DNA of 64,000 bases. It comes from an uncultured Legionellales bacterium. GTDB taxonomy: Bacteria; Pseudomonadota; Gammaproteobacteria; Eutrophobiales; Eutrophobiaceae. Shown here piece by piece: positions 3,183 through 56,767 of this stretch. The notes under the pieces are model-generated. The model saw nothing but the letters and a program-made list of their open reading frames with translations, was not told the DNA's origin and did not search any database. The stretch's first letter is position 1, and each line of letters begins with the position of its first letter. Where the stretch lies: contig CAJWRJ010000001.1 of assembly GCA_913046215.1 (NCBI GenBank), positions 72,897-136,896 of the forward strand, in the 5' to 3' direction. A program made the translations under genes and the position numbers.

Positions 3183-4629
3183 ATTTTTTTGGTATTTTTT
3201 TGTGCCAGTCAGTGGCTTTTTGATACTGATGGGCTACATTTATTATAAGTGATTCTTGAAAATGATTACCAATCAGCTGCATTCCGACTGGTAATTCGTT
3301 AATAAAACCAGAGGGAATCGAGATAGCTGGTAATCCAGCGAGATTTGCCGAAACAGTATATATATCTGAAAGGTACATGCTTATTGGATCATTAAGTTTT
3401 TCATTTAATCTAAAGGCGGTTCCAGTTGTCGTTGGTCCTGCTAAAAGATCAACTTTATCAAAAACTTCCTTAAAATCATTACGTATTATTTGTCTAACTT
3501 TTTGTGCTTTTAAATAATATGCATCGTAATAACCAGCTGATAAAACATACGTACCGATCATTATTCGCCTTTTTACCTCTTTTCCGAATCCTTCTTGCCG
3601 ACTTCGACAATATAGATCTTTCAAATCTTTTGGTTCATTGCAACGATGACCAAAACGTATGCCATCATAACGAGATAAGTTAGATGAACATTCGGCTGGA
3701 GCAACAACATAATATGCAGGAATAGATAGTTCTGTGTGAGGTAAATCAACATCAATAAATTTAGCACCTAATTTTTCAAGTTCTTTAATTCCATTTTCTA
3801 CTAAGTTTGCAACATCATTATTTAAATTTTTATCAAAGTATTGTTGTGGAAGCCCAATCTTCAATCCCTTAATTGAGTCATTTAGGTTTTTTGTGTAATC
3901 TTCTATTTTATTATTTGCTGATGTTGAATCATTTCCATCATAACCTGCAATAACATTCATAATTAATGCTACATCTTCTGCTGTTTGCGCCATTGGTCCT
4001 CCTTGATCAAGACTGGAGGCAAAGGCTATCATTCCGTAACGGGAAACTCTTCCGTATGTCGGCTTTAGTCCTGTTATTCCACAAAATGATGCTGGTTGTC
4101 TTATTGAGCCACCAGTATCAGTGCCAGTAGCCGCTGGACATAATCTGGCAGCAACAGCACTTGCAGACCCACCAGATGACCCCCCTGGCACATTATCATT
4201 ATTCCATGGATTTTTTGCAGGCCCAAAGAAACTTGTTTCGTTTGATGAGCCCATTGCAAACTCATCCATATTAGTCTTCCCTAACATGACAAAACCATTT
4301 TCATTCATTTTTTTGACTAGCGTTGCATCGTATGGCGCTATAAAATTACTTAGCATTTTAGAACCACAGGTTGTCTTAACTCCATTTGTACAAAATATAT
4401 CTTTTTGTGCAACAGGCACACCTGTTAGCAATGTGTGATTACCCCTAGCACGATTTTTGTCAGCAATCTTTGCTTTTTTTATTGCTTCGTCTTCAGTAAT
4501 TGTAATAAAGCAATTTAATGAAACATTATGCTTTTTGCAGCGCTCAATATAGCCACGAATTAATTCTTCGCTACTTATCTTTTTTGATTCTAGAGCTGAT
4601 GAGAGTTCTGCTAGCGTAGATTGATGCAT
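3175..4629 (-). CDS. gatA: Glu-tRNA(Gln) amidotransferase subunit A
   Basis: 484 aa with the amidase signature [36 protein letters not shown]. Confidence 0.95.
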
Positions 4630-32901: not shown

Positions 32902-33034
32902 AAAAACAGATTCTAAAATCGAGATTCAGCCTCAATTGTCAAGGTTCATTTCAGGACAGCCAATATTTTACACTTAAAAAACTGTCCTAATTATAGGTAT
33001 AATTGACTCATATACTACGAAAGTGCCAATAATA

Positions 33035-34390: not shown

Positions 34391-34516
34391 GTGATTAGCC
34401 AAAATCTGGACAAAATTACGACCTAAATTATCATCAAGTGTTTTATAGAATAATATTATTAGATAGTGTATTTTTTCAGTATGAGATTAGAAAAATCACC
34501 GAATGTAAGTCAATAT

Positions 34517-36349
34517 ATGGTATTTCCAAAAAAGACACTTTTTTTACTCGTAGGCATTATTTTTTTCAGTGTCTCAAGTGCTAATGAACCTATTATAGAT
34601 CAAGACCTAAAATTACCCGATAATTATCAATCTCAGTGGGAGAAAGTTGCTGGTGATTCTGAACCCGTAATGCCAGGCGGGGGAGACGGATTAGATCCAC
34701 ATCTTAAAATATTACAACAATCGAAATATCCATCAGCTGCACTTTGTGGAAGATGTCACCAGCGTATTTTTACTGAGTGGGCTTCATCAAACCATGCTTA
34801 TGCATCAATTTCGCCAATGTTTCACAAGTTTGAGCAAGCGGTCAATGCATTGACGTCTGGCACGATGGGTACTTTTTGCGTGCGTTGTCATCAACAAGTC
34901 GGTACTCAAGTCGGAGAAACTCGCGAAGCACCTCTTTGGGAACGTTCACAAGTTGCTAGAGAAGGTATCACATGCATTACTTGCCATAGAGTTAATCAAG
35001 CGTTTGGAAAAGTAAATGGCGAGCGTCACATACAGCCAGGGACTATTTACGAACCAGTATATAATACTGGCGATGCGCCAGGTGTTGCAGAGGTGATATC
35101 TGAACGTGATTATTATAAAGTTGCAACGAATCCTGACGAGGAAGGCTTCCCGATACACGGCGGCGCTCAAGTTTTCGAGACAATTGGAGAGTCTGAGTTT
35201 TGTGTTTCATGCCATCAGGTCGCAGTTAATTTAGGAATTAAGTTAGAAGTTGTATGGGAACAGTACCGTGATAGTCCTGCGCATGCGAAGGGCGTGACTT
35301 GTCAAGAGTGTCATATGGGCAAGATTCCGGGAGAAGCAAAAGGCTATGATACTGGACCTGTTGCTATAGTTAATGGACGCGTTGTTGGAGATCCAAATCG
35401 TAAACATTCAAATCATGCATTTTACGGACCCGGTTATCCAATTGCTCACCCTGGTTTATTTCCATTTAATGTGCGTTCATTGAAATGGTCTGTAAAAGAG
35501 TGGCTGACATTTAATTATCGAAAGCCATGGGGTAAGCCTGATTGGGAGGATAAGCTCGAACAAGGATTGGTGGAAAAACCAGAATTTCCTGAAATATGGT
35601 CGACTAGACAGGCACGAGAAGAAGCTAGATACATAATTGGCCAGAACAATAAATTGCTCGAGAATAAAAAGCTAGATCGTTTAGCTGTAATGGAAAATGG
35701 AAGCCGTATTGATGGACCATTTTTTGATAATGGTAAACCAGAAATGGGAAAAGATTTAAAATTTCGTTATCGAATTACAAATGTTGATGAGGGACACAAT
35801 CTTCCATCTGGTTCTTTAGGCGCACAACCAGAAATCTGGCTCAATGTCGTACTCACAGATCCTGATGGCGAACGTGTATTTGAATCAGGATATGTTGACA
35901 AGTACGGAGATATGGTTGATTTACATTCGTTAGAGTTGGCCGAGGGCACAATAGAACACGATGATCAACTTTTTAATCTACAAACAAAATTTTTGACAAC
36001 CAATATTAAAGGTACTGATCGCGAGATGTATCTGCCTGTTAATTTCGATATAGATCAACTCCCATTTTTAAGACCTGCCCCACAACCAACGACTGTCATG
36101 AATCATCCACCTTTCGTGAGAATGGAGGGTCGTTCAATACCACCTTTAGCTTACCGTGATGCTAAATATAAAGTCTCCGGTGATTTAATAAAAAAATCTG
36201 GCACATATAAATTACAAGTAAGAATGCGAAGTCGTGCGGAACCAATTTATTTTATGAAATTTGTTGGTGCAACACTTGATATGGAAAAAAGAATTAATGA
36301 CTGGATGATTGATATTCATCCATACTCAGTCGATTTTGATATCAATTAA
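34517..36349 (+). CDS. secreted pentaheme c-type cytochrome with a ~300-aa non-heme C-terminal domain
   Basis: Likely start MVFPKKTLFLLVGIIFFSVSSANEP (signal peptide). Heme sites CGRCH, CVRCH, CITCH, CVSCH and CQECH. The track ORF begins at 34466. Confidence 0.8.
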   Translation: MVFPKKTLFLLVGIIFFSVSSANEPIIDQDLKLPDNYQSQWEKVAGDSEPVMPGGGDGLDPHLKILQQSKYPSAALCGRCHQRIFTEWASSNHAYASISPMFHKFEQAVNALTSGTMGTFCVRCHQQVGTQVGETREAPLWERSQVAREGITCITCHRVNQAFGKVNGERHIQPGTIYEPVYNTGDAPGVAEVISERDYYKVATNPDEEGFPIHGGAQVFETIGESEFCVSCHQVAVNLGIKLEVVWEQYRDSPAHAKGVTCQECHMGKIPGEAKGYDTGPVAIVNGRVVGDPNRKHSNHAFYGPGYPIAHPGLFPFNVRSLKWSVKEWLTFNYRKPWGKPDWEDKLEQGLVEKPEFPEIWSTRQAREEARYIIGQNNKLLENKKLDRLAVMENGSRIDGPFFDNGKPEMGKDLKFRYRITNVDEGHNLPSGSLGAQPEIWLNVVLTDPDGERVFESGYVDKYGDMVDLHSLELAEGTIEHDDQLFNLQTKFLTTNIKGTDREMYLPVNFDIDQLPFLRPAPQPTTVMNHPPFVRMEGRSIPPLAYRDAKYKVSGDLIKKSGTYKLQVRMRSRAEPIYFMKFVGATLDMEKRINDWMIDIHPYSVDFDIN

Positions 36350-36359
36350 AAAAAAGATC

Positions 36360-38825
36360 ATGCCTCTAAAACATAATAAATTAAATAAGATTTATAGTTT
36401 ATTTTTATATAGTGCACTAGTTTTATTTTCATACCAGCAGCCATTATATGCGGATGTGTTGACTTCAGTTAATGATTGGGCGAAGGCTTGGGCATCACAA
36501 AATGTTGATCAATATTTTGAAAGTTATGCTGAAGATTTTGCGCCCTCTCAAGAACATACTAAAAAAACTTGGAAATCTCAAAGAGAGAGTAGATTGTTGT
36601 CTCCAAGTTTTATCAAGGTGACATTATCTAATATAGAAATCAGCCAGCACTCTGAGGATTTTGCTGATGTGCTTTTTACACAAAACTATAAGTCAGATAG
36701 CTATTCTGATGAAGTGACAAAACAATTGAGAATGCAAAAAATTGATGACAAATGGCTGATTATAAAGGAAAAAACTATAAAAATAAGACAGAAAACAGAA
36801 CTCCAATTAGTGAAAAAAAATGAGGTTTTAGAGGACACCACAACAGTCCAAATCGAACATGATGTTAAAGAGGCCTTGAATAGTTGGTCAAAGGTTTGGT
36901 CATCTCAGGATATTGATGGTTATTTTGCAGCTTACGCTGAAGATTTTTCGCCATCCAACATATCAAACAAAAAAAAATGGAAAAAACAACGTCATAATAG
37001 AGTCATTAGTCCAAGCTATATAAAGGTAACTCTTACTGATGTGAAGATTACACAACACAGTAAAAATAATGTCGACGTAGTATTTAATCAAAATTATGAA
37101 TCTAGTAATCACAGCGATGATGTTAGAAAACTTATTTCCATGCAGAGGGAAAATGAGCGATGGTTGATCACCAAGGAGAGAGTAAAAAAAGTTTTGATTG
37201 ATATTAGTGAAGACCTATCTTCACAAGACAAAACTAATCTTATAGCAGAATTAGATTCTCACAGTGATAGTTCAATAAATTATGCAGATGTTGTTCCTGT
37301 TGAAGATGATTTGAAAGATGAAAGTATTTTACGAAGAAGAGATGTACCCGCCGATACTGTTTTAGAGAAGAGAAGTGGTAGTCCTAAACATAAAAGTCAC
37401 CAAGCGCCACCCGAAATGGATCCTCATGTTCGTCCATCTGAATTTGAGCCAGATCTTTTTGGAAGTGATCCAGTATATCCAGATAATGTTTATGATGTTG
37501 CTGAGCAAATAAAAATTTATGGTGGAAAAACTCCATTTGATGAACCACGTCCAATACTAGAATTTGGTTATCCTCTTTATTCCGAGGGTGCTTTGGGTAG
37601 AACCTATGATGTTATTGGAGAGAAAAACTTGTTAAGACCACAGCTACTTGTATACGGTGATTTTAGAAGTGCTCTTGCTTTTAACGACAATGGCAACAAG
37701 GAGATTGGTCAGATCGCTGCAAGGTTGAATCTTGATGTTGATTTAAAATTAACCGCAACAGAACGTATTCATCTTTTTCTTCGTCCTATTGATAAAAATA
37801 ATAATTTTCTTCGTCACGAGTTTTTTGGCGATGATCATAATGACTTCGATTTTGTGTTAGATGCAAATCTTGAGACTATTTATTTTGAGGGTGATATAGG
37901 GGCCATTCAATCGGGATTAACAAATGAATGGGCAACTTATGATTTGCCCTTTGCTATTGGTTTCATGCCTTTGCTTTTTCAGAATGGAATATGGCTTGAT
38001 GACGCATTTGTAGGTGCTGCATTTGCTATTCCAGCGATGAATTCTCCAAAGTACGATATATCAAATATGGATATTAGCTTTTTCACTGGTTTTGACAAAG
38101 TAACAACTGCAGCATTAAAAAATGGAGCTGGTCAAATAGAGGATAGTAAGGGAAATGTTTTTGGTGTAAATGCATTCGTGGAAACTCGACAAGGATACTT
38201 AGAAGCCGGTTATGGTTTCATTGATGATAAACGTAATGGAAATATATTAAGTGGTTTTGATCATCATAGTTTGACTGCAGCATGGACAAAGAGATATAGA
38301 GGGAAACTTTCAAACTCAATACGTGGTATCTGGACATTTGGACAAACTCCGAATGGAGGCAATACCCAGACTGCTGATGGGTTTGTCATTCTCATAGAGA
38401 ACTCACTTATAACTAGCAAGCCATCAACTTTAATTCCATATGGCAATTTTTACGTTGGTGTGGATAGACCTCAACCACTTGTACGTGGCAATGATGGGCT
38501 TCTTAAAAATACAGGAATAGTCTTTGAAACCGACGGTTTAACAGGATTTCCAAAACTTGATTCCTCTGCTCAAGATGTATTTGGTGGCGCAATTGGTATT
38601 CAATACCTCTTTGATTTATCTAGACAGGCTGTATTTGAAGTTGCAACTGTTCAGCCATTTGGCGGTCAGTCTGCGACGATTGTTGGCGATCAGTACGGAT
38701 TGAGCGCACGATATCAGCATAATTTAAATGATCGTTGGCTTATAAGGACGGACGCAATGATTGGAATTCTTAATAATGCAGAGAATATTTCTGGTATTCG
38801 TCTCGAATTGCGCCGTAAATTCTAA
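36360..38825 (+). CDS. outer-membrane beta-barrel protein with two tandem N-terminal NTF2/SnoaL-like domains (putative porin partner of the cytochromes)
   Basis: Signal peptide MPLKHNKLNKIYSLFLYSALVLFSYQQPLYA. Two ~110-aa repeats (VNDWAKAWASQNVDQYFESYAEDFAPS...WLIIKEK and LNSWSKVWSSQDIDGYFAAYAEDFSPS...WLITKER). The ~540-aa C-terminal region shows alternating amphipathic strands and a terminal ...GIRLELRRKF, the OMP C-terminal Phe signature. Confidence 0.6.
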   Translation: MPLKHNKLNKIYSLFLYSALVLFSYQQPLYADVLTSVNDWAKAWASQNVDQYFESYAEDFAPSQEHTKKTWKSQRESRLLSPSFIKVTLSNIEISQHSEDFADVLFTQNYKSDSYSDEVTKQLRMQKIDDKWLIIKEKTIKIRQKTELQLVKKNEVLEDTTTVQIEHDVKEALNSWSKVWSSQDIDGYFAAYAEDFSPSNISNKKKWKKQRHNRVISPSYIKVTLTDVKITQHSKNNVDVVFNQNYESSNHSDDVRKLISMQRENERWLITKERVKKVLIDISEDLSSQDKTNLIAELDSHSDSSINYADVVPVEDDLKDESILRRRDVPADTVLEKRSGSPKHKSHQAPPEMDPHVRPSEFEPDLFGSDPVYPDNVYDVAEQIKIYGGKTPFDEPRPILEFGYPLYSEGALGRTYDVIGEKNLLRPQLLVYGDFRSALAFNDNGNKEIGQIAARLNLDVDLKLTATERIHLFLRPIDKNNNFLRHEFFGDDHNDFDFVLDANLETIYFEGDIGAIQSGLTNEWATYDLPFAIGFMPLLFQNGIWLDDAFVGAAFAIPAMNSPKYDISNMDISFFTGFDKVTTAALKNGAGQIEDSKGNVFGVNAFVETRQGYLEAGYGFIDDKRNGNILSGFDHHSLTAAWTKRYRGKLSNSIRGIWTFGQTPNGGNTQTADGFVILIENSLITSKPSTLIPYGNFYVGVDRPQPLVRGNDGLLKNTGIVFETDGLTGFPKLDSSAQDVFGGAIGIQYLFDLSRQAVFEVATVQPFGGQSATIVGDQYGLSARYQHNLNDRWLIRTDAMIGILNNAENISGIRLELRRKF

Positions 38826-38834
38826 ATAATTATA

Positions 38835-40532
38835 TTAAATTTTTTCTTTTGGCATCATCAAGTCTTCGCGATGAAAGCCATGACATTCAGTACAGGTGCT
38901 TTTTACTTTTGTTGTCGTTGTTTCTCCACCATGGCATTCCTGACAAGTTGTAATTGACGGGAGCAGTATATCGGTAGCTTTTTCACTTTTTGTTGCATCA
39001 TGACATGTTGTACATTCTCTATCTTTGTGCGGTTTATGATTAAAGAAACTTTTTGGTAGCCACTTTGTTGGTACATGAACAGTTGCTATATCCCATCTAC
39101 CCGTTTTTTTATTTTCTACAATTTGGTGACATTCTCCACATAGTCCACGACCATATCTTCCTTGTACAATTTCTTCGGCTTTTGCTTCAGCCCATTCTAG
39201 AGCCGCCTTCTTTTTTTCTTTAGTATCAGGTTTATCGCCTATTAGTTTACGAAAAGTTGATGTTTCATCATTTAATGTATTTGACTCAATAAAATTGCCT
39301 CGAAGTGCAAACTCGGCATATGTTCCTATAATATATTCTTTTGCTAAAGAAATATTTCCATGCGGCATCTCTCTATTAGGTGCTTGAGGTTCAAATTTTA
39401 AGTCGTGGCAACTGGCGCAGTGTTTTTCAAAACTTACAGGGAGTAAAGCAACACCTCCAGTTTCAGGCTCATGGCAGAATCCACACTGAAGAACCGTTCG
39501 TGTTCCATTTGGATGTCTAACTCCATTTTCTTTTAGATGCTTATTATGTGGAAATTTCAAATTCGATCGATCTATTGGTTTTGGTTTTTTTTGATCAATC
39601 GTCACTCTCTCAAAAGTTAAAGGCTGATGAGTTTTTATGAGTGTAGGACGAAATTGAGGATGTTCGTTAAAGTTTGAGACATTTTTTAATTTAGAATTCT
39701 CAGCAACATCTAGGATTTCACTATGGCAGTTGCTACAAAATCTTTCAGTGGTGATAAGCAAGCCCTGATCGCCATTATGTTCTTTATGACAATCCTGACA
39801 CTGTTGTCCATCTAAAGAGGCGCTTGGAAATATAGACGGGTCCGCATGGTGCCCGGCATCATCATGACAATCAAAACATACTTTATTTCCTACTTGTTGA
39901 AATGCATCTGTATGGCATGTTTCGCAGCGATCGCCAAAATGTGCATGCACACTAGAATGAGGGCCTGACAACCAAATTTTATCAGCGGTTGCTAAAATTC
40001 CATTTTTTTTTGTTTCACTTACTGTTTCATTTTTTTTATATTTTATCGTATATGCGGTAAGTGGCCCCAATATTCCAAGCGTGATAATTCCAATAAATAA
40101 AACCCACGCCCATCCTCTAGTACTGAGTCCAAGCGAATCAAACTGTGTATTTGATCGTTTTTTAAATGCTTCTAATTCATCACCTAGTGGACGCGAGTAC
40201 TCAATAGTTAATACAGCATCATATCCATCTTCATTATCTAAGACCTCGATATCATATGGACCAAGATGAATTTTATCTCCCGTTTTTACGGTTGATTTAG
40301 TAAGGATTTGATCATTAACCTGAAAATCACTATCTCCTTGACCCTCTAAGTATAGTTCTCCCGAACGCTCTGTTATTTCAAGTTGAATTAATAGAATTCT
40401 TGGATCAGTTAAGTGAACCTCGCATTCTGAACCACGTCCAAAGCGAATTGCAGGAGATTCTATATCTTCGTCACGCTGAGCATATCCCCCAGAACGAGTT
40501 TTTTTAAGAAGATGTCTAATAAGTACTTTCAT
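38835..40532 (-). CDS. FHA-domain / single-TM / periplasmic decaheme c-type cytochrome fusion
   Basis: 565 aa. N-terminal FHA-like fold (IRFGRGSECEVHLTDPRILLIQLEITERSGELYLEGQGDSDFQVNDQIL...GDKIHLGPYDIEV), TM helix (WAWVLFIGIITLGILGPLTAY), then ten CXXCH sites: CETCH, CFDCH, CQDCH, CSNCH, CGFCH, CASCH, CGECH, CTTCH, CQECH, CTECH. Confidence 0.75.
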   Translation of the reverse strand: MKVLIRHLLKKTRSGGYAQRDEDIESPAIRFGRGSECEVHLTDPRILLIQLEITERSGELYLEGQGDSDFQVNDQILTKSTVKTGDKIHLGPYDIEVLDNEDGYDAVLTIEYSRPLGDELEAFKKRSNTQFDSLGLSTRGWAWVLFIGIITLGILGPLTAYTIKYKKNETVSETKKNGILATADKIWLSGPHSSVHAHFGDRCETCHTDAFQQVGNKVCFDCHDDAGHHADPSIFPSASLDGQQCQDCHKEHNGDQGLLITTERFCSNCHSEILDVAENSKLKNVSNFNEHPQFRPTLIKTHQPLTFERVTIDQKKPKPIDRSNLKFPHNKHLKENGVRHPNGTRTVLQCGFCHEPETGGVALLPVSFEKHCASCHDLKFEPQAPNREMPHGNISLAKEYIIGTYAEFALRGNFIESNTLNDETSTFRKLIGDKPDTKEKKKAALEWAEAKAEEIVQGRYGRGLCGECHQIVENKKTGRWDIATVHVPTKWLPKSFFNHKPHKDRECTTCHDATKSEKATDILLPSITTCQECHGGETTTTKVKSTCTECHGFHREDLMMPKEKI

Positions 40533-40535
40533 TTC

Positions 40536-41378
40536 TTACCAATAAAAAAATACAGCTAGTATGTGAGAGAAAAGTGCAGCCAATAAACCTATCGATAGTG
40601 GAATATGAAAAAATAACCACACTCTTAGAATTACTTTTATTTGAATATCGCGTCTCGCTCGTCTGAGTAATTTTGTTTTTTTTGCAAGTAAAGCGATTAC
40701 CTTTGATATGTTTTGATCGCGAAGACCCATATCAGCAAATTTTTCTTCAATTAAATTCCTAGCATTTAGGGTTGGACAGTCAATATTTTTTGGTGATAAT
40801 TTTTCTATTATATTTCCACCTATACTAGTCTCAGTGGCTGCTTTAAGTAGAGCCGTATTTATTTCTTCAGGCAGTTGCTGACCAGCTTTAAGAATATCTT
40901 GATCTAGTTCTGAAATTTGCCCCATCATTTCATCTAGAGACAGTCCAGCTCGATTTTTTGTCATTAGCTTTGGATAATATGCATAAATAAATACCCCAAC
41001 AACACCACTTAACACAGTTAACAGCATAAGGATGTAAGCAATGGAATGGATATTCCATCCAATCTGAAAACCACTATGTAGAGTTGCGGTAACTACAAGA
41101 GCGAGTCCAAGATAAATATGAGCAGACAACCAAACCTTTAATCCTGTTGCACTAACAGCATATTGCCTTTTTCTAACTCCAAACCAAGTTAACCACAAAA
41201 CTAAAACAGCTGAAATTATCCCCAATGTGTATCCAAGCCATGATCCGCCATTTGGTTCACCCAGGGGGTTATGCCATATATAAAGAACGATTGAGATAAA
41301 AGCCAATGCGACGGCATACCAAAGAAACTTGAGACCTTTATAGATAAAAAAAGAATCATGGACATTACGTGAACTCAT
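40536..41378 (-). CDS. polytopic inner-membrane protein with conserved intramembrane His (putative b-heme / quinol-interacting subunit)
   Basis: Start MSSRNVHD, placed by a TGATATG stop/start junction with the upstream gene; 280 aa. Five TM helices with His in helices 3-5 (LSAHIYLGL, WNIHSIAY, FFHIPLSIGLLAALFSHIL). A ~100-aa soluble loop lies between TM4 and TM5. The track ORF is extended to 41579. Confidence 0.55.
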   Translation of the reverse strand: MSSRNVHDSFFIYKGLKFLWYAVALAFISIVLYIWHNPLGEPNGGSWLGYTLGIISAVLVLWLTWFGVRKRQYAVSATGLKVWLSAHIYLGLALVVTATLHSGFQIGWNIHSIAYILMLLTVLSGVVGVFIYAYYPKLMTKNRAGLSLDEMMGQISELDQDILKAGQQLPEEINTALLKAATETSIGGNIIEKLSPKNIDCPTLNARNLIEEKFADMGLRDQNISKVIALLAKKTKLLRRARRDIQIKVILRVWLFFHIPLSIGLLAALFSHILAVFFYW

Positions 41379-41379
41379 A

Positions 41380-43788
41380 TCACTCGCTCCCGTCTCTAAT
41401 AAAGTCCATGAATTCGTCTGGTTTGACACGTATCGCCGCCCCAGTTGGGCAAGCACGCACACAAGCAGCACCACCTTTAATATCCTTACACATATCGCAC
41501 TTAACTGCTGTTTTGCGAGCATCCTCCGGTGCTCTTTCTCGGTAACCATAGTCTTCGCCTGGTCCAGGACCTTTTCCAAAAAGAAGCCAAGAAAACAAAT
41601 TTGGTTTTTCTGGTGGTTCAGGCGCCATTTGAATTACCCCATATGGGCAATTTTTTTGGCAGTTACCACAACCAATACAGTCATTTGTAATGTAAACTTC
41701 ACCGTCAGGGTTTCTTTTAATAGCATCGGGAGGACAGTCCGTCATACAGTGCGGATGTTCGCAATGTCGGCAACTTGTTGGAACATGCACGTTTGCAAAT
41801 GTTGGTCCTGCCTCACGATTTAATCTCGAAATACCCCTGTGTGTCTCGGCACAGGCTTTTTCACAATTATCACATCCAACACATAACGATTCGTTTATTA
41901 AAAGCACATCAGTTGCTTCACCTATACCTTCTCCCATTAAAAATTCTACAATACTTCCAGCCTCAGGTTGCTCTATCATTTTTTCTGTTGAAACAATACG
42001 TTCACCATATTTCTCTTCGATTTCTTTTTGAAGAGAAGGATTTTCATCAACTAATTTGCGGAAGATTTCACCATCTATCTTAATTGTTTCACAATCAACC
42101 GCGGCTTTAATTGTTGCTGTTCGATTTAAATCTGACATTAATGCCATTTCCCCAACATAATTACCTGCAGCGACGTAAGCAAGGGTTACCTCCTTACCAC
42201 CTATTCGTTTCGATACCATCACTGAGCCTTTACTTATGAGATAAAGCGCATCACCCTCATCACCCTCATTAAATATAACTTTACCTTTACGAAAGGTTTC
42301 TATTGAAGCTGAGTCTGCCAATTTTTGTATTGCATTAATGTCGAGGGCGCTTGCGATATAAGTTTGAATTTGCCTTACGATAGCCTCTTTATCCATAGAA
42401 TTTCGTAAAGAACGGACATCCTCTCTTAATTTAAGCATCGTACGACGAGGCGTTTCAATTAATATCGTATCATCTGCATTAGATAAAATTGTTGCCGAAC
42501 GTCTACGACCCGATATTAATCCCACTTCTCCAAAAAATGCACCTTGCTCCAAGACAACAAACTTAGATGGATCATCCTCGCTAGTTTGTATTTTGACTGA
42601 GCCCCTGAATATTGTGTAGACACTATTCGTATAATCTCCCCGTTCAAAAATTACTGTTCCATTAGGCGGCGCAGTTACGGTTGATTCAACTAACATTTCT
42701 CTTTCCATTAATGGGTTTAGTTCTTCAAATATAGGAAGTCTTGCCCTCACTTCTTTTAAAAAAGAATCATTATCAAAATCCTTTATATCTTTTAAAGTTT
42801 TAGTAATTATTGGTTCATCAGCTGGATCTAATTCCGTGTTACCGTTGATATATTCAATGACTTCATAACCCTGATTTATTGCATGTTTAATTAACGGATA
42901 TCCACCTAAGGAGCCAACTATATATAGGCCTTTAACATTTGATTCGTAGGTTTTGCTTACTTCTGGCAACGCGCTGCGTGCATCAGATGGAAAAGTAACT
43001 CCACAGGCTTCAACAAACTTTCGTGGCGGTGCTGCACCAAGTCTAGCAATCACTCTGTCACACTCTATTGTTACATCGCCATCAGGCGTATCAAAAGTTA
43101 ATGTTCCTTCCGAACATTCCTTTGAACTACTATTGTATAGGGGAGTAATACGTCCTCTATCAATTTCAGCTAAAATAGCCGCTTCATTTGCTTCTTTTGC
43201 ACGTGAAAATTCATTACCACGATTAGCTATATAAACTGTGTTATGCGTACACAAACCAAGTGCATTTTCTATTGCAGCATCACCCGCACCGATAACAATG
43301 ATAGTTTCATGCTCATATTCATCTGGGTCATCTAATTGATATTGAATATGCGTGACATCATCTATTCCAGGTATTCGTAAAGTATTCAGATTACCTTGAA
43401 GACCTATTGCAAGAACGATTGATTCTACTTTAATAATATCTTTATTTTTTAGTGTAAGCTCAAACTTTCCTTTTGTTCCTGAAACAGATTTAACTTCAGA
43501 ATTGTATAGAATATTAACTTGGTGATTTTTTAATGCTAGATTCCATCTATCGAGAACATCTTCTCTGCTTCCCATTTTAAAATCGATATCTGAACGCAAG
43601 GGAAGCACGTCCGGAGTTGCCATAACATGCTTACCTTTTTGAAACTTGTAAATTGTGTCCGATACATGATCTGCTTTTTCAATTAATACATGTCGTAAAC
43701 CTAATACAGATGCATGCGCTGCTGCACTAAGACCAGCTGGTCCAGAACCTATTATTGCAACTTGAAAAATTGATTCTTTACTCGCCAT
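41380..43788 (-). CDS. FAD-dependent pyridine-nucleotide oxidoreductase fused to two cyclic-nucleotide-binding domains and a poly-[4Fe-4S] ferredoxin domain
   Basis: 802 aa. Rossmann fold VAIIGSGPAGLSAAAHA plus a second dinucleotide site IIVIGAGDAAIENA. Two cNMP-binding segments (FFGEVGLISGRRRSATI; YVGEMALMSDLNRTATIKA). C-terminal Cys clusters CVGCDNCEKAC, CRHCEHPHCMTDCP, CIGCGNCQKNCP and CDMCKDIKGGAACVRACP. Confidence 0.8.
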   Translation of the reverse strand: MASKESIFQVAIIGSGPAGLSAAAHASVLGLRHVLIEKADHVSDTIYKFQKGKHVMATPDVLPLRSDIDFKMGSREDVLDRWNLALKNHQVNILYNSEVKSVSGTKGKFELTLKNKDIIKVESIVLAIGLQGNLNTLRIPGIDDVTHIQYQLDDPDEYEHETIIVIGAGDAAIENALGLCTHNTVYIANRGNEFSRAKEANEAAILAEIDRGRITPLYNSSSKECSEGTLTFDTPDGDVTIECDRVIARLGAAPPRKFVEACGVTFPSDARSALPEVSKTYESNVKGLYIVGSLGGYPLIKHAINQGYEVIEYINGNTELDPADEPIITKTLKDIKDFDNDSFLKEVRARLPIFEELNPLMEREMLVESTVTAPPNGTVIFERGDYTNSVYTIFRGSVKIQTSEDDPSKFVVLEQGAFFGEVGLISGRRRSATILSNADDTILIETPRRTMLKLREDVRSLRNSMDKEAIVRQIQTYIASALDINAIQKLADSASIETFRKGKVIFNEGDEGDALYLISKGSVMVSKRIGGKEVTLAYVAAGNYVGEMALMSDLNRTATIKAAVDCETIKIDGEIFRKLVDENPSLQKEIEEKYGERIVSTEKMIEQPEAGSIVEFLMGEGIGEATDVLLINESLCVGCDNCEKACAETHRGISRLNREAGPTFANVHVPTSCRHCEHPHCMTDCPPDAIKRNPDGEVYITNDCIGCGNCQKNCPYGVIQMAPEPPEKPNLFSWLLFGKGPGPGEDYGYRERAPEDARKTAVKCDMCKDIKGGAACVRACPTGAAIRVKPDEFMDFIRDGSE

Positions 43789-44090
43789 GTGGTGATTTTT
43801 TCCCTTTAATTTATTGCAAATTATATCTATTTTTCTTATTCAGGAATGCCAACTATTTTTGCAAAGATTAACAAAAAAATCAGGTCTTTACTTCAATATA
43901 CTAATTATTTTTTTAGTTTTTTTTACTAATTTGACTCAATTTCTATCTAATATATCATTCGGGGCCTAATCTGTATGAGCGCAAACTTACTGTTTGTATA
44001 TTAATTATTACCATAAATTCCTCTGGCAGGTATTAAATACCAAGCCTTTGGTTTATATTATAATGGGAAGTTTACATCAAGATTTGAAAT

Positions 44091-44167
44091 GCGCCCGTAG
44101 CTCAGTTGGATAGAGTACCTGGCTACGAACTAGGGGGTCGGAGGTTCGAATCCTTCCGGGCGCGCCA
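44091..44167 (+). tRNA. tRNA-Arg (anticodon ACG)
   Basis: GCGCCCGTAGCTCAGTTGGATAGAGTACCTGGCTACGAACTAGGGGGTCGGAGGTTCGAATCCTTCCGGGCGCGCCA. 77 nt canonical cloverleaf, close to E. coli argV. Confidence 0.92.
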
Positions 44168-44197
44168 TTTTATTTGTATAGAGGAATTTAATTTTTC

Positions 44198-44926
44198 TTA
44201 CTGTCGCCTTTTAAGCCACATCCAAATACCGGTAGCGGAAATAACAAGCATTAGAATTGCAACCAGATCCATAAAGTAGGTACCCCATTTTCCTACAACA
44301 CGGCCGCTATGCATATCAAGCAATACTCTTTCAATTGTCAGACCTTTGCCGCGGTACTCGTTAAAAATAGCAATTCTTAGTTTCTCGGATATATTATTTG
44401 ATGTGTCCGACCAATTTGCAGAAAGCAGATCATGTTCATTCCAGTTCAAAATATCCAAATTGACGCGATAATAACCATGTGCCGATTTAATTATTACATT
44501 ATCCTTATCATCAACACCAATTGCTTTCATCCCTGCGGGAACACCCTCGGCACCTGATAAAGATTCTAAAAGTTTACCGTCTTCAGTAAGCACCATTAAT
44601 TTTCCATCATAACCAACGACAAATGTGTTATTTATATAAACAACACCAATTAGGTTTTCTACATTAGTAATAATTTCTATGTCATTGAAATAAACACGTT
44701 GACCAAGTTGTGTTATCCAGTTGTTATTGTAGGAAGGGTATGCGATAGGTTCGGAGTTTGGGCTAATTTGATAAAGATCAAGCAACCATTCCATCTTTAT
44801 AAATGTTGTATTTAACTTGAACTTTTCACTGTGGTTTAATGCGATACCGCTAATAGCAAGAAAAATAACAAATATTACGATGAATATTCCTATCTTTTTG
44901 TGCCACCTTTGTATAAAAAGAAACAT
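44198..44926 (-). CDS. PepSY-associated TM-helix family membrane protein (two TM helices flanking a periplasmic domain)
   Basis: 242 aa. N-terminal QRWHKKIGIFIVIFVIFLAISGIALNH and C-terminal LDMHSGRVVGKWGTYFMDLVAILMLVISATGIWMW are typical PepSY_TM helix signatures with conserved His. Confidence 0.6.
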   Translation of the reverse strand: MFLFIQRWHKKIGIFIVIFVIFLAISGIALNHSEKFKLNTTFIKMEWLLDLYQISPNSEPIAYPSYNNNWITQLGQRVYFNDIEIITNVENLIGVVYINNTFVVGYDGKLMVLTEDGKLLESLSGAEGVPAGMKAIGVDDKDNVIIKSAHGYYRVNLDILNWNEHDLLSANWSDTSNNISEKLRIAIFNEYRGKGLTIERVLLDMHSGRVVGKWGTYFMDLVAILMLVISATGIWMWLKRRQ

Positions 44927-44956
44927 ACACCTATTCTAGGATGCAATTATTTATTT

Positions 44957-45484
44957 TCAATTTTTATTATCGATATATTGATCTAGAAATAGAGCTAGAC
45001 GTGCTAATTTTATCAAAGCATCAACTGACAATGTTGCTCCACTAATACCATCAATTTTTCTATCTAATTTTGTATCAGCCTTAAGAGAGGCATCTGCAAA
45101 TTGTTCTGTAAAAAAAGGATATCTTACTTCCCATCCTCTTGATTCTCTAAAAACTAGTACTTTCACATCTAGAATCTTTCCTTTTGAAGTAACATATCCA
45201 GTCGTAATTGGCTTGTCTCTGCCAATTCTCTCTAAAATCCAGGCTTTTTTAGACCCATCATCCCAATATCGAAGTCGTAATGGCTTGAATTCATCTCCCA
45301 GTATTTTTTTTATTTCTTTCTTTAGCTCTTTTTTAAGCCATAGTTTTTTTGGATTTGGAGGGTTATTGTTAAACACGTCCGATAAAAATTTTTCAGGTTC
45401 TAAGTAAGTTCCCTTTGCATAAGAGTGTAAACTCCAACTCTGAGTTAGTAGAAATAAAAAGATATATAAAGTCAGTTTTGTCAT
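44957..45484 (-). CDS. secreted FMN-binding domain protein (predicted ApbE flavinylation target)
   Basis: 175 aa with a signal peptide. The C-terminal KIDGISGATLSVDAL matches the D-x-[ST]-G-A-T-x-[ST] motif of NqrC/RnfG-type FMN_bind domains, whose Thr (here T151) is covalently flavinylated. Confidence 0.65.
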   Translation of the reverse strand: MTKLTLYIFLFLLTQSWSLHSYAKGTYLEPEKFLSDVFNNNPPNPKKLWLKKELKKEIKKILGDEFKPLRLRYWDDGSKKAWILERIGRDKPITTGYVTSKGKILDVKVLVFRESRGWEVRYPFFTEQFADASLKADTKLDRKIDGISGATLSVDALIKLARLALFLDQYIDNKN

Positions 45485-45589
45485 ATTTAGTTATAAGCCT
45501 ACAAAAAAAATAGGGCACTTACAAAAGTGCCCTAAATATATCACCACGAGGATATTACCGTTGGTACGATAATTCTTAAAATTTATTAT

Positions 45590-46756
45590 TTAGAACGAAT
45601 ACCCTACACCAAGATAGAAGTTATCTGTGGTTGTATTATCATCAACATCTTTAACCGATTCAAAGGTACCTTTGAAAACTACCTTTGGATGTGGCCAGAT
45701 ATTAAAACCTGTTGAGGTACGTTCTTCTTCGTTTCTAGAGCCTGTAAAACCTCTGTCTATGTCTTCGTATCTGATGTAGACACCTACGTCGGTATTACTA
45801 TTACCCACAGTCCAACGATAGGCTGGCTCAACATACCAACCTTCTGAGTCTTTACCATCAGCTGATAAGTTCTTATTCATATCCCATCCCGCATAAAGAG
45901 CGCGGAAACCTAAACCCGAGCTATGTTTATAATCGACATGAGTTGTAAATAAGTGAGCATCATTTCCTGATACTAGTTCACCACCGATGTTACTTTGGAA
46001 TTGGTATGAAGCAGATAATTCAAGACCTGGAACACCGGTATAACGGAGTCGACCAGTTGCTGCCGGATATTCTGCGTTTGCTTCTGCTACCTTTTGTCTA
46101 CCAGATCGTATGTTGCTACTCGTTTCTAACCCTGAGTGAAGTACGATGTCATAGTTAACACCTGGTGCAACTTCCCCATTGAAACCAAAACCTGCTTCCC
46201 ACCAAGTTGAAGGAATGATTCTTTTTTCTACTTCATTTCGCTCAACTCCATAGAATGTATTAGGTTCATGTGTAACATTCAACATACCAACAGGTAGAAT
46301 ATCAAGACCGGCACGGAAATGATGATTTTCACTAAGGTCAATTTCAATCCATGCTTGTTCTAATTCAACCTCACCTTCTTTACCCTCTCCAGCTAATGAA
46401 TGCTCTAATTCCCATTCTGAGAAGAAGTGGATGTTATCGGTGTAGTCATGACCTATGTATAGGACATAACGGTGGAAGTCGACTTGATCTGTTCCATCAC
46501 CAAATTTGTAATGAAGTTCACCATAGCCGCCCATCTGAGTTTTATCAGCCCAATTACCAGTTGCACCACCAGCACCAGATTCTACAGCTTCTGCGGTAGC
46601 ATCAAGTTGCTCCTGGAGCTCTTCAATAACTTTTTGCTGTTCTTGTATAGTTTGCCACATTTCTTCTGCTGTCGGTGCTGCTTTAGCGGCAGAGACAGTA
46701 AAAAACATGAATAGAATCATGTAGATAACTCTATTAATGTGATTATTCGTATTCAT
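45590..46756 (-). CDS. outer-membrane beta-barrel porin-like protein
   Basis: 388 aa. Signal peptide (an alternative start is MILFMFFTVSAAKA at 46720), an N-terminal coiled-coil (WQTIQEQQKVIEELQEQLDA), alternating amphipathic strands, and a C-terminal ...NFYLGVGYSF. Confidence 0.6.
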   Translation of the reverse strand: MNTNNHINRVIYMILFMFFTVSAAKAAPTAEEMWQTIQEQQKVIEELQEQLDATAEAVESGAGGATGNWADKTQMGGYGELHYKFGDGTDQVDFHRYVLYIGHDYTDNIHFFSEWELEHSLAGEGKEGEVELEQAWIEIDLSENHHFRAGLDILPVGMLNVTHEPNTFYGVERNEVEKRIIPSTWWEAGFGFNGEVAPGVNYDIVLHSGLETSSNIRSGRQKVAEANAEYPAATGRLRYTGVPGLELSASYQFQSNIGGELVSGNDAHLFTTHVDYKHSSGLGFRALYAGWDMNKNLSADGKDSEGWYVEPAYRWTVGNSNTDVGVYIRYEDIDRGFTGSRNEEERTSTGFNIWPHPKVVFKGTFESVKDVDDNTTTDNFYLGVGYSF

Positions 46757-46819
46757 AAATATCCCTCTCTATTTACTAAAAAACTAGTTTTTTACATGTA
46801 ATTGAATAAGAATAATAAC

Positions 46820-46860
46820 CTAAATGATAATCATTATCAATACAAATGATAATTATTATC
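46820..46860. promoter_or_regulatory. two tandem Fur-box-like sites
   Basis: GATAATCATTATC at 46826-46838 is an exact match to positions 7-19 of the 19-bp Fur consensus GATAATGATAATCATTATC. GATAATTATTATC at 46848-46860 has one mismatch. Both lie 70-100 bp upstream of the start of the minus-strand porin operon. Confidence 0.6.
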
Positions 46861-46987
46861 GATATAGAAAGAAATTAGAGCTTTAATTTTTTTACATATA
46901 AAATGATGTTTTATTTTTTAGTAGTTACGACTAATATGAGTAAGAAAATTTTATATAAATTAAGTAAATTAAAAGGAGTTCAGTAAG

Positions 46988-47194
46988 ATGAGTAGCGGTA
47001 AAGTTAAGTGGTTTAACGAATCGAAAGGTTTTGGTTTTATTGAGCCGGATGAGGGTGGAGATGATATCTTCGTTCATTTTTCGTCAATTAAAGCCGAAGG
47101 TTTTAAAACATTAAATGAAGGGCAGGCTGTAACGTACAATGCAGAGCAAGGACCAAAGGGTCTGCATGCAGTTGAAGTCGAAGTGACCTCTTAA
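46988..47194 (+). CDS. cspA: cold-shock protein (CspA family)
   Basis: 68 aa, [34 protein letters not shown], with RNP1/RNP2 motifs. Confidence 0.95.
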
Positions 47195-47268
47195 ATAAGC
47201 ATTTAGAAATTTTTTACAACTATCAAAGCTAAGTGCAATATCTTTTGTTCACATCCCACAAAGGACGC

Positions 47269-47294
47269 AAGATAAATAATTATCTTTTAATTTT
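47269..47294 (+). terminator. weak AT-only hairpin + T-tract downstream of cspA
   Basis: AAGATAA-ATAA-TTATCTT followed by TTAATTTT. The stem is entirely A/T, so stability is low. Confidence 0.25.
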
Positions 47295-47344
47295 GTTCAT
47301 CATATACAACATGACCATATAGTGAAATTATTAGGTGTCTATAG

Positions 47345-47530
47345 ATGAATTTATGGGAACAAATTTTACTTGGAATGGTCGCAGTTATTGTGACATTTTT
47401 ATTCTGGCCCGGAATAAAAAAAGCTATTGAACAAAGTAAAAACGTAGAAAATCCTGATTGGGCGGGCGCATTGATACCAATAGGTGTCGTTGTTTTATTT
47501 ATCATATTTCTGATTTCGGTATCAGGATGA
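47345..47530 (+). CDS. small 2-TM membrane protein, hypothetical
   Basis: 61 aa with two hydrophobic helices. Confidence 0.3.
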   Translation: MNLWEQILLGMVAVIVTFLFWPGIKKAIEQSKNVENPDWAGALIPIGVVVLFIIFLISVSG

Positions 47531-47591
47531 TAGAAACGACAGCTTTAAAATTTAATTATATATAGTAAACAAATTACAACACGAGGATGCT

Positions 47592-47990
47592 ATGCATTTA
47601 TGTAAAAAGGTATTTTTTATATTATCGAGTCTAATATTATTCAACCCATTACAAGTGTCTGCTGATGATCATGAAGCAATGCTTACTGCGGGTGAATTAC
47701 TGTCAGGGTGTGAGGAAAATTCCTCACCTGGTGCACCCAACCAGTATTGTATGCGATACCTTTTTGGGTTGATTCAAACTGTACTTACGCTCCAGCAGGC
47801 AGATCAAAGCCCACCGATTTTTTGCATAGATCCACAAGTTACGCCTATACAAGAGGCTACCGACAATATGATTGCACATCTGCGAAGTCAGTCCTCGCGT
47901 TCAAATGAGGATGCACAGAAAATAGTTTTAGAGGGGCTCAATAAAAATTATCCTTGTTCAAATCAATCGAAAAAACCAACCTATCACTAG
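47592..47990 (+). CDS. secreted Cys-containing hypothetical protein
   Basis: 132 aa. Signal peptide (ILFNPLQVSA/DD) and four Cys in the mature region. No recognisable motif. Confidence 0.4.
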   Translation: MHLCKKVFFILSSLILFNPLQVSADDHEAMLTAGELLSGCEENSSPGAPNQYCMRYLFGLIQTVLTLQQADQSPPIFCIDPQVTPIQEATDNMIAHLRSQSSRSNEDAQKIVLEGLNKNYPCSNQSKKPTYH

Positions 47991-48083
47991 AGAATTTAAA
48001 TCAAGTTACATGGTTGGCTCCATTTGTATGAACTAAGCGCTGATATTTATGTCTCTTAATTATAATTTCAACAAGGGTTCATC

Positions 48084-48893
48084 ATGAAAAATATAGTTAA
48101 GTTGTCGCCAATGATTTTTCTGGCCTTCTTCATATCTGTCTCTGCCGCTGATTTTGATGAAGTATATAGCGCATATGAAAAACAAAAATATGATATAGCT
48201 CTAGAGGGTTTTCTTGAGCTTGCAAATGAAAATCATATGGAATCTCAATATTACCTTGGCACTATGTATCGTGAAGGAGAGGGCGTTGATCAGGACTATT
48301 CAAAGTCGCTTGAGTGGTATCTCAAGGCAGCTAATCTTGGAAGCAAAGGCGCACAGCACAATGTAGCATTGTTTTATCACAATGGTATATCAGTCGATCA
48401 GAATATTGCCAAAGCTCTTGATTGGTACTATAAATCAGCGAACCAGGATTACATCCCATCGCAAATAAATATTGCCAAAATTTTTTATAGCGGTCAGGGA
48501 GTAAGTGAGAATATTCCTGAAGCGATAAAGTGGTGGAATAAAGCAGCTGAGCTTGGAAGTAAAGGTGCACAACATAATCTCGGGCTAATGTATTTTCTCG
48601 GGCAGGGCGTAGAGAAAGATTTATCAAAAGCTAGAGAATGGTACTTACTTGCAGCCAAACAAGGCTCGAAAGAAGCTCAGAATAGTATGGGTTTTATGTA
48701 TTTCGAAGGTAAAGGAGTTAAAAAAGATTTGATTGAAGCTTATGCGTGGTTTCAGTTGGCTGCAGTTACGACAGACTTTCAACAAGCTAAACTGAATTCT
48801 AGTATTGTTGAGGCGAATCTAAATACAGAGGAGTTGCAAGAAGCAAAGGAAAGAGCGCAGAAATATATTTCACTTTATGCAGTTGGTGATTAA
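48084..48893 (+). CDS. secreted Sel1-repeat (TPR-like) protein
   Basis: 269 aa with a signal peptide and at least six repeats of A-x-x-Y-x-x-G-x-G-V-x-x-D-x-x-[KE]-A-x-x-W-[YF]-x-x-A-A-x-x-G. Confidence 0.85.
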   Translation: MKNIVKLSPMIFLAFFISVSAADFDEVYSAYEKQKYDIALEGFLELANENHMESQYYLGTMYREGEGVDQDYSKSLEWYLKAANLGSKGAQHNVALFYHNGISVDQNIAKALDWYYKSANQDYIPSQINIAKIFYSGQGVSENIPEAIKWWNKAAELGSKGAQHNLGLMYFLGQGVEKDLSKAREWYLLAAKQGSKEAQNSMGFMYFEGKGVKKDLIEAYAWFQLAAVTTDFQQAKLNSSIVEANLNTEELQEAKERAQKYISLYAVGD

Positions 48894-55765: not shown

Positions 55766-56767
55766 CTACTTTGAAATAAATGGCTCAAAATATTCATTGT
55801 ATTCCTCATAAAAATTTTCATCATTTTTTATGATTAAATATACTCCTATTTTTAGTTCATTTGCCAATTCTATTGTTTTTGCTGGACCTAAGACCATGAA
55901 TGCTGTCGCCAGAGCATCTGCGTTCATTGCTGTTTTATCCAGTACGGTAACTGATGCCAATTTATGTTTTATTGGTTTACCGGTATTCGGGTTAATTGTA
56001 TGCGAGTAGCGCACTCCATTTTTTTCAAAGTAGTTCCTATAATCACCAGATGTAGCCATGGCTATATCTTTAAGTCCAATAATTTTTACAAGATTATTAT
56101 TAGGATTTTCAATTCCTATTTGCCATACTTCATTATCTTCATTTGTCCCTTTAGCAATCAACTCCCCACCAATTTCAACTAAATAATTTTCTAAGTTATA
56201 GCTATTTAAATATAGTGCAATTTTATCTACTGCAAAACCTTTTGCTATTCCTGAGAGGTCTACATATAGATCAGGGTGTAATTTTTTTATACTTGTAGTT
56301 TCCTTGTTTAGATAGATTTTCTTATATCCAATGTTTTTCTTTATTAATTCAATCTCTTCATTAGATGGTATTTTATTTTCTGATTTATTAGGACCAAAAC
56401 CCCATAGATTTACCAAAGGACCAACCGTTATATCAAACGCTCCATTTGTAGTTTTACTTATAGTATTTGCATGAGAGATTACTTTGAATAAGTCATCAGA
56501 TATGAGATTCGAATCTAAGCTATTTGAAAAATTGATCACGGATAATTCTGAATCTACTATATATGTCGACATTTTCTGATTAATTTCTAATAGTATTTTT
56601 TCGATGTCAGCACGTATTTTTTCTTGATTAACTACGGCATCAGCCGTTTTAATTTTTATACTATAGGTGGTTCCCATAGTTAATCCATTGATTAACACAA
56701 TTTTATAATTATTATTTTGACAGGCACCGGTGCCTATCATTAGGAATATTATTATCAAAATTCGCAT
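55766..56767 (-). CDS. apbE: FAD:protein FMN transferase (ApbE family) lipoprotein
   Basis: 333 aa. Lipobox (IGTGAC), MGTTYSIKI, FDITVGPL...WGFGP and DLSGIAKGFAVDKIA are ApbE hallmarks. Confidence 0.88.
   Translation of the reverse strand: MRILIIIFLMIGTGACQNNNYKIVLINGLTMGTTYSIKIKTADAVVNQEKIRADIEKILLEINQKMSTYIVDSELSVINFSNSLDSNLISDDLFKVISHANTISKTTNGAFDITVGPLVNLWGFGPNKSENKIPSNEEIELIKKNIGYKKIYLNKETTSIKKLHPDLYVDLSGIAKGFAVDKIALYLNSYNLENYLVEIGGELIAKGTNEDNEVWQIGIENPNNNLVKIIGLKDIAMATSGDYRNYFEKNGVRYSHTINPNTGKPIKHKLASVTVLDKTAMNADALATAFMVLGPAKTIELANELKIGVYLIIKNDENFYEEYNEYFEPFISK

Follow-up and report, generated by a model that had tools for sequence, protein, structure and literature searches.

The window analyzed here, a 64,000-nucleotide (nt) stretch of contig CAJWRJ010000001.1 from an uncultured Legionellales bacterium, contains on its minus strand a cassette of three genes that encode an outer-membrane porin (388 amino acids, 45590-46756), a secreted FMN_bind protein (175 amino acids, 44957-45484) and a half-size PepSY_TM protein (242 amino acids, 44198-44926). 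The divergent neighbor of the porin gene, at 46988-47194 on the plus strand, is a cold-shock-domain gene (csp; 68 amino acids, CSD domain, E-value 2e-27), and the intergenic region between the two carries a pair of predicted binding sites (boxes) for the ferric uptake regulator Fur. These boxes are, very probably, operators for iron-loaded Fur that control the promoter of the porin / FMN_bind / PepSY_TM cassette.

The classical gammaproteobacterial Fur box is the 19-bp sequence GATAATGATAATCATTATC, with a 7-1-7 reading of TGATAATNATTATCA. Box 1, TGATAATCATTATCA (46825-46839), is a predicted site with no mismatch to the 7-1-7 motif (15/15), and box 2, TGATAATTATTATCG (46847-46861), is a predicted site with one mismatch (14/15); neither is assigned to a strand. 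The plus strand across the boxes reads ...CTAAATGATAATCATTATCAATACAAATGATAATTATTATCGATAT..., where the 13-mer GATAATCATTATC at 46826-46838 is identical to the last 13 positions of GATAATGATAATCATTATC, and the 13-mer GATAATTATTATC at 46848-46860 differs from the consensus at the central position only. When complete 19-mers are compared, site 1 (46820-46838) agrees with the consensus in 16 of 19 positions and site 2 (46842-46860) in 15 of 19; the extended conserved motif around box 1 occupies 46820-46844. The start-to-start distance of the two 13-mers is 22 bp, and because the porin open reading frame (ORF) begins at 46756 on the minus strand, they lie 70-82 and 92-104 bp upstream of the ATG, with the boxes themselves spanning 69-105 bp. 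The original prediction had described two such sites, 22 bp apart and 70-100 bp before the porin start, the first matching the last 13 consensus positions and the second with one mismatch, in a region that is also upstream of the opposite-strand cold-shock gene, and the sequence reading agrees with all of this.

Sites of this quality are rare in the window. There are two exact matches to GATAATNATTATC in the 64 kb, both of them the boxes, and in a 15-mer scan no other site comes as close as the boxes, the third-ranking one having 2 mismatches. First-order Markov simulations lead one to expect 0.11 sites with at most one mismatch per 64 kb, compared with two observed, and only 1 of 300 such simulations contained two or more of these sites anywhere. 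Both boxes are copies that come from one duplication and are, therefore, counted as one rare event, not two. The GC content is 28-42% in the window and 18% in the 200 bp upstream of the porin gene; even at 20-25% GC, a perfect dyad of 14 specified bases is expected at ∼1e-7 per position, and none of 1000 mononucleotide shuffles of these 200 bp reaches the observed perfect match. Several weaker candidates elsewhere in the window were set aside: the third-best Fur-like site, TGAAAATGATTACCA at 3257-3271, which has 2 mismatches and scores 13 bits under the family matrix, falls within the 3' end of gatA, just ahead of gatB, and probably arose by chance; two sites at 56703 and 56743 (3 mismatches) fall within the signal-peptide codons of the ApbE gene and were rejected as chance matches, as was a matrix match at 42756-42780 inside a gene for an 802-amino acid protein.

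Box 1 has counterparts in related loci. A scan for the porin in one genome per species yields 27 loci, from marine Legionellales metagenome-assembled genomes (MAGs), Colwellia, Kangiellaceae, Haliea, Gilvimarinus, Litorivivens, Woeseiaceae, Lysobacterales and others, and the gene order porin, FMN_bind, PepSY_TM is common to all 26 loci that reach far enough. With start codons assigned to the porin orthologues before the upstream scan, a Fur-like box is found ahead of the porin gene in most of the 26 loci, typically 69-111 bp from the start, and this includes genomes of 53-63% GC, with boxes such as TGATAATGCTTTTCA (L013, 56% GC), TGAGAATCATTCTCA (L021, 55%), TGATAATGATTTGCA (L022, 53%) and TGAGAATGATTGTCA (L026, 63%). 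Sites with at most 2 mismatches number 15 in 4,862 porin-upstream positions, compared with 3 in 208,655 other positions, or 1 in 17,086 when non-ORF positions are considered, which amounts to a 53-fold to 215-fold enrichment upstream of the porin; two of the three background sites, both in locus L007, front iron-linked genes, namely bfd and the binding-protein gene of an ATP-binding cassette (ABC) importer. The upstream site is unmatched in quality elsewhere in the ∼9-kb locus in 18 of the 26 loci, the four GC-rich examples among them, and is significant against composition-matched shuffles (p<0.05) in 17 of the 26.

The same motif emerges when the Fur consensus is left aside altogether. A de novo 12-mer search of 20 non-Legionellales upstream regions, which used no Fur consensus, recovers AATGAGAATGAT / AATGATAATGAT in 16 of the 20, compared with at most 6 in shuffles, and the family motif, aAATGAtAATGATTtnCATTTAG, has the pattern of the classical 19-bp box. 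A matrix of 25 columns was built from 16 distant sites, with the clade of this genome left out (consensus CTAAATGAGAATGATTTGCATTTAG), and run over the 128,000 positions of the window. Position 46820-46844 on the minus strand, that is, box 1, ranks first with 19.6 bits, about 5 standard deviations above the mean (mean -25.4, standard deviation 8.9), whereas box 2 scores 11.2 bits and takes rank 7. The first rank of box 1 under a matrix derived from distant porin-upstream sites implies that, of the two predicted operators, box 1 is the orthologous, conserved one.

The second box has a different history. At 46822-46865 (without strand), a 22-bp sequence is duplicated in tandem, AAATGATAATCATTATCAATAC / AAATGATAATTATTATCGATAT, and each copy has one of the boxes as its core; an inverted repeat scan also detects the pair, with arms at 46826-46839 and 46847-46860 that are 93% complementary, because each box is itself palindromic. 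In the closest relative (L001, 89% identical), box 1 reads TGATAATAATTCTCA and the position of box 2 holds only a degenerate copy. In L002-L006, a second box is located 33-39 bp downstream of the first, past the -10 hexamer and over the transcript start, and in L009, 23 bp upstream of the first. Two boxes per promoter are therefore common in the clade, although the position of the second one is not conserved, and the 22-bp tandem that carries box 2 is, judging from these comparisons, a lineage-specific duplication. Thus, of the tandem Fur boxes originally predicted, box 1 stands as a conserved, orthologous site, whereas box 2 does not hold as a conserved feature. A direct repeat, TTTTTTACATGTAA / TTTTTTACATATAA, with copies at 46788-46801 and 46888-46901, 100 bp apart, is arranged roughly symmetrically around the Fur boxes; its first copy (46788-46801) holds the perfect palindrome TTACATGTAA, and conservation of the repeat in L001-L006 is not obvious.

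The boxes sit on the predicted porin promoter. The best minus-strand sigma-70-like site of the region, with a score of 10/12, consists of the predicted -35 hexamer TTGATA (46835-46840), which lies within box 1, and the predicted -10 hexamer TATTAT (46812-46817), separated by a 17-nt spacer. Transcription from this site would start near 46805 and give a 5' untranslated region (UTR) of ∼49 nt, with the Shine-Dalgarno sequence GAGGGA at 46762-46767 (minus strand), 5 nt before the porin ATG. In this predicted promoter, box 1 spans the -35 hexamer together with 10 nt of the spacer, and box 2 directly precedes this hexamer, at approximately -42 to -56 relative to the predicted transcription start. 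All seven Legionellales-group sequences share TTGATA, a 17-nt spacer and TAnAAT, TATTAT or TATATT (the latter in L001), with a Fur box over the -35 hexamer; the six closest loci, L001-L006, encode porins that are 66-89% identical to the one in the window. This conservation across loci strengthens the promoter prediction.

Synteny is informative as to which of the two divergent genes the boxes serve. The csp gene adjoins the cassette in L001-L006 only; in L002-L006, where the spacer between csp and the porin gene is ∼260-630 bp, the boxes stay 44-92 bp from the porin start and far from csp, and in ∼20 loci that have no adjacent csp, the box is still found upstream of the porin gene. On these grounds csp was rejected as the regulated gene. 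A role of the boxes as Fur operators for the divergent cold-shock gene, alone or together with the porin operon, is accordingly an unlikely alternative, although the end of box 2 is only 127 nt from the csp ATG and two plus-strand promoter-like sites, TTGAAT-18-GATAAT (46802-46831) and ATGATA-18-GATAAT (46824-46853), use the GATAAT of a box as the -10 hexamer. Those sites would give csp a 5' UTR of 130-150 nt, a length similar to that of the Escherichia coli cspA leader, but they score 9/12 and are built from the box sequence itself; furthermore, an Rfam scan of 44000-48000 detected neither a cspA leader nor any other cis-regulatory RNA, the only hit being a tRNA-Arg with everything else below the threshold, and the conserved block that precedes csp in both the window and L001 is, in L001, separate from the Fur box. 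The sequence comparisons therefore point to the porin operon as the target of the boxes, with csp an unlikely one, and there may be a side effect on csp in this particular genome. Beyond csp, at 47592-48893, a Rap1a-like gene (a type VI immunity family) is followed by a Sel1 gene with five repeats; this order is the same in L001-L004 and L006, and the L005 contig stops within the Rap1a gene.

The cassette itself does not appear to be transcribed uniformly. In the spacer between the porin and FMN_bind genes, a predicted intrinsic terminator or attenuator (45503-45534, minus strand) consists of a 10-bp GC-rich stem followed by T8 and ends ∼20 nt from the FMN_bind start codon. It is present in L001-L007, L010, L013, L014 and L016; across the Legionellales group it occurs in all seven sequences, with stems of 10-11 bp and compensatory changes at 5 of 11 pairs. 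Many of the GC-rich relatives have a gap of only 0-30 nt between the two genes, and no hairpin. There is no room for a promoter after the terminator, which argues for one transcript under Fur control that terminates in part behind the porin gene, so that, given the conservation of the terminator, the putative ‘three-gene operon' is probably expressed as a porin-rich transcript with partial read-through. Of the three-gene minus-strand operon as originally described, the gene order is borne out by 26 of 26 loci, with the qualification that transcription probably falls off at the conserved terminator. A candidate second Fur box in the same spacer (conserved ATTATCG..CGATAATATYCTC) was rejected, since the dyad in it is missing its central base and the matrix score is low. 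The terminator hairpin is preceded, within 45485-45589 (minus strand), by another conserved hairpin, a small one with the sequence AATTATCG..CGATAAT, whose stems are changed in L006 and L002, and a conserved stretch, ATHCTCRTGRTRA, follows this small hairpin; the element contains GATAAT hexamers and no Fur-box match, and might have a part in RNA processing or stability.

The proteins encoded by the cassette fit the proposed role in iron reduction or acquisition. The porin has a signal peptide, an N-terminal coiled coil (approximately residues 30-59) and a 16-strand beta-barrel, and shows no significant direct match in sequence searches of Pfam (E<=0.001), NCBIfam or the PDB. It has more than 5600 homologues, many with a precomputed PF07396 (Porin_O_P) assignment and the NCBI name ‘porin'. 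An AlphaFold2 model (predicted local distance difference test score, pLDDT, 75) has an N-terminal helix (residues 30-59) and 16 strands, and a Foldseek search with this model retrieves OmpC, OmpU, OmpF and OprP at E-values of 5e-12 to 6e-11 and template modeling (TM) scores of ∼0.6, as well as chitoporin at an E-value of ∼1e-11. In the absence of a sequence match, the porin is therefore identified only via its homologues and predicted fold, and seems to be distantly related to the OprO/OprP family. The FMN_bind protein (PF04205, E-value 1e-7) starts with a hydrophobic, signal-like segment and contains the motif D-G-I-S-G-A-T, of the type flavinylated by ApbE (PMC8238504), in which G149, A150 and T151 are invariant in all 27 sequences. 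The PepSY_TM protein (PF03929, E-value 2e-12; PF16357, 2e-10) has two hydrophobic helices (approximately residues 12-30 and 217-238) that flank a periplasmic domain, and conserved histidines H9 (27 of 27 sequences), H32 (26 of 27) and H206 (27 of 27); its similarity to FoxB (PDB 7ABW) is marginal (E = 3) and confined to the C-terminal helix.

A gene for an ApbE flavin-transferase lipoprotein (55766-56767, minus strand; PF02424, E-value 5e-91) with a lipobox is present in the window, 9 kb from the cassette, not adjacent to it, and without a Fur box. Based on the motif, the FMN_bind protein is a likely ApbE substrate, and ApbE the likely accessory enzyme needed for its flavinylation. On the other side of the cassette, a tRNA-Arg (ACG) gene on the plus strand (44091-44167), convergent with the end of the PepSY_TM gene, lies between the cassette and the gene for an 802-amino acid flavoprotein / FeS / cyclic nucleotide (cNMP)-binding protein; the latter was rejected as a part of the cassette since, among the loci that extend far enough, only L001 and L003 have it. 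It belongs to a cluster at 33023-43788 that includes three multihaem cytochrome c genes (33023-34390 and 34466-36349 on the plus strand, 38835-40532 on the minus strand), an 838-amino acid protein with a Cds6_C domain (36309-38825), a 347-amino acid ORF with no Pfam hit (40536-41579), and the 802-amino acid fusion itself (41380-43788), with pyridine-nucleotide-disulphide oxidoreductase, two cNMP-binding and 4Fe-4S ferredoxin domains. This cluster, which seems unusual for a Legionellales-like genome, may be an extracytoplasmic electron-transfer module.

The genes around the cassette in relatives indicate a connection with iron. In L028-L030, two bacterioferritin genes and bfd (Fer2_BFD) precede the cassette and an ABC importer follows it, and in L007, bfd is found before the cassette and the same type of importer after it. 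The bfd gene is a classic Fur target; both it and the importer have Fur-like boxes of their own, in L028-L030 a strong double one for bfd and the conserved AATGTAATTnGnAATnATTATCATTTATA for the importer (regions 3645-3680 and 6515-6540 in L007, 7605-7640 and 10690-10710 in L029). The importer consists of a binding protein, a fused double permease and a TOBE ATPase. Its assignment in L007 and L029 as an FbpABC equivalog was rejected: NCBIfam places it only in the Fe3+/thiamine/2-aminoethylphosphonate (2-AEP) family, below all equivalog cut-offs, and it counts here as context only.

Comparison with known systems gives a similar picture. Like classical Fur boxes, the sites described here are dyads, with one of them over the predicted -35 hexamer and the spacer, occur more than once per promoter and belong to a putative iron-acquisition operon; the Fur promoters of E. 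coli differ in typically having contiguous or overlapping hexamer arrays, whereas here there are separate predicted sites, 22 bp from center to center, that come from a duplication. Legionella pneumophila, from a related group (the closest genome match is a Legionellales MAG), follows the same logic, with Fur boxes at genes induced in low iron, and those predicted include boxes at lbtABC, lbtU, frgA, mavN/iroT, feoABC and irsA (PMC11705809); that study names no PepSY, porin or FMN gene as iron-regulated, and the host here is an uncultured marine lineage.

From its sequence features, the operon qualifies as a predicted PepSY-like flavinylation-associated cluster as operationally defined by Meheust et al. 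2021 (PMC8238504): a PF03929/PF16357 protein is encoded beside a PF04205 FMN_bind protein, and this secreted partner has a flavinylation motif. Such systems have been proposed to reduce and assimilate iron, and repression of the clusters by Fur is reported for Shewanella and Caulobacter (PMC8238504); in Shewanella, a Fur motif accompanies the PepSY gene SO_1188, whose response to iron is strong (PMC2667191, PMC12442407). The cassette shares with Shewanella oneidensis SO_1188-1190 a PF03929/PF16357 membrane protein next to a secreted ApbE substrate, as well as Fur control, which in the present case is predicted. It differs from systems of this type in that the partner is FMN_bind rather than DUF2271, there is no DUF4198, VIT1 or TonB receptor, the leading gene encodes an OprO/P-like porin, the half-size PepSY_TM protein has 2 helices, and there is an internal terminator. 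The RegPrecise-derived Fur regulon of Stenotrophomonas includes pepSY and an adjacent periplasmic hypothetical protein (PMC6240677), which are possible orthologues of the genes discussed here. The characterized PepSY_TM reductases have at least 4 transmembrane helices (PMC13038864). FoxB, FpvG and VciB, which reduce ferric siderophores, and the copper-linked CrpH (PMC13038864; PDB 7ABW) share with the protein encoded here the PepSY_TM signature, helix-end histidines and a periplasmic domain, but have at least 4 transmembrane segments, compared with 2 helices here, along with TonB-dependent receptor partners and no flavoprotein partner. No experimental study of a porin / FMN_bind / PepSY_TM cassette was found in the literature.

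Several observations weigh against control of the cassette by Fur in response to iron. Promoter-like sites are not enriched in 43700-47400, with 16 found versus 14 expected in a consensus prediction on 18%-GC DNA, so that the promoter prediction alone is weak. A tblastn search of the window and the 27 loci with E. coli Fur found no fur gene; this genome is assumed to have one, given that fur is nearly universal in Gammaproteobacteria. A good match to the E. coli-type consensus is missing in about one third of the distant loci (L012, L014, L015, L017, L018 and L024), although L017 and L018 nonetheless carry the family motif. The strong conserved terminator makes the co-regulation of the two downstream genes depend on the presumed read-through. 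At the protein level, FoxB-type proteins have at least 4 helices and two bis-His haem sites, compared with 2 helices and three conserved histidines here; a PepSY_TM dimer could rebuild the four-helix core. Finally, the PepSY_TM protein CrpH serves copper (PMC13038864), and because one subfamily does so, family membership alone leaves the metal unfixed. The Fur box and the neighboring iron genes argue for iron as the metal.

The copper link of CrpH and the fur gene not being seen in the window and the loci searched are also the points that favor a different reader of the motif, either a Fur-family paralogue (Zur, Mur or PerR-like) or a generic binder of AT tracts, in which case the cue for the operon would be a different metal or signal, for example copper, manganese or redox state. 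Such a regulator is very improbable in view of the perfect 7-1-7 match and of a family motif that follows the classical 19-bp box; moreover, the same motif occurs before bfd and the cassette-adjacent ABC importer in L007 and L029, and gammaproteobacterial Zur boxes, of the GAAATGTTATAWTATAACATTTC type, differ from Fur boxes. A chance origin of the matches in AT-rich intergenic DNA, with a neutral 22-bp duplication to multiply them and no function in regulation, is scarcely credible: the 18% GC of the region, the single duplication event and the lack of enrichment of promoter-like matches are compatible with it, but not the expected frequency of a perfect dyad and the outcome of the shuffles given above, nor the presence of the motif at the orthologous position in distant and GC-rich genomes and the first rank of box 1 under the clade-free matrix.

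Repression of the cassette by iron-loaded Fur is thus supported computationally by the rarity of the sites, their overlap with the promoter, the footprint in most of the 26 loci and the gene content. The proposed fit to a ferric-reductase or iron-acquisition role, likewise part of the original prediction, agrees with the invariant histidines of the PepSY_TM protein, the flavinylation motif of the FMN_bind protein, the ApbE gene in the window, and the bacterioferritin, bfd and importer genes that neighbor the cassette in relatives. From these data we infer Fur binding, iron repression, and the reductase chemistry together with its substrate.

The mode of action can be envisaged as follows. Box 2 lies two helical turns upstream of box 1 on the same face of the DNA. 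When iron is sufficient, Fe2+-Fur dimers would occupy both boxes, probably cooperatively, and RNA polymerase would be excluded. When iron is scarce, Fur would leave and the operon would be transcribed; most transcripts would probably end at the terminator after the porin gene, a fraction would read into the flavoprotein and PepSY_TM genes, and through this partial termination the porin would be abundant and the two redox proteins scarcer. The porin would then admit iron species through the outer membrane, the PepSY_TM protein, as a haem protein of the inner membrane, would pass electrons outward, and the periplasmic FMN_bind protein, flavinylated by ApbE, would take up these electrons, so that ferric iron would be reduced in the periplasm for uptake. 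Taken together, the products of the cassette probably make up an iron-acquisition route that spans the envelope. A broader proposal, which can be made only tentatively, is that the cassette might be a distinct, TonB-independent, envelope-spanning route of reductive iron uptake that Fur controls directly and that, with more than 5600 porin homologues, would be widespread in marine Gammaproteobacteria; in it, an OprO/P-like porin, not a TonB receptor, would admit the ferric substrate, and the internal terminator would set the ratio of the porin to the redox proteins.

Fur boxes ahead of iron-related operons are commonplace, and the value of this one is that of an anchor for annotation; it also makes available a defined predicted operator and promoter for reporter or Fur-titration work. 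Through the predicted boxes, a cassette whose porin has no Pfam match and whose other products are a periplasmic flavoprotein and a minimal PepSY_TM protein appears to be tied to the iron-starvation response, and this putative tie extends over many marine Gammaproteobacteria, an uncultured Legionellales-like lineage included. The cassette thereby becomes a concrete candidate for a reductive route of iron uptake in the ocean that works independently of TonB.

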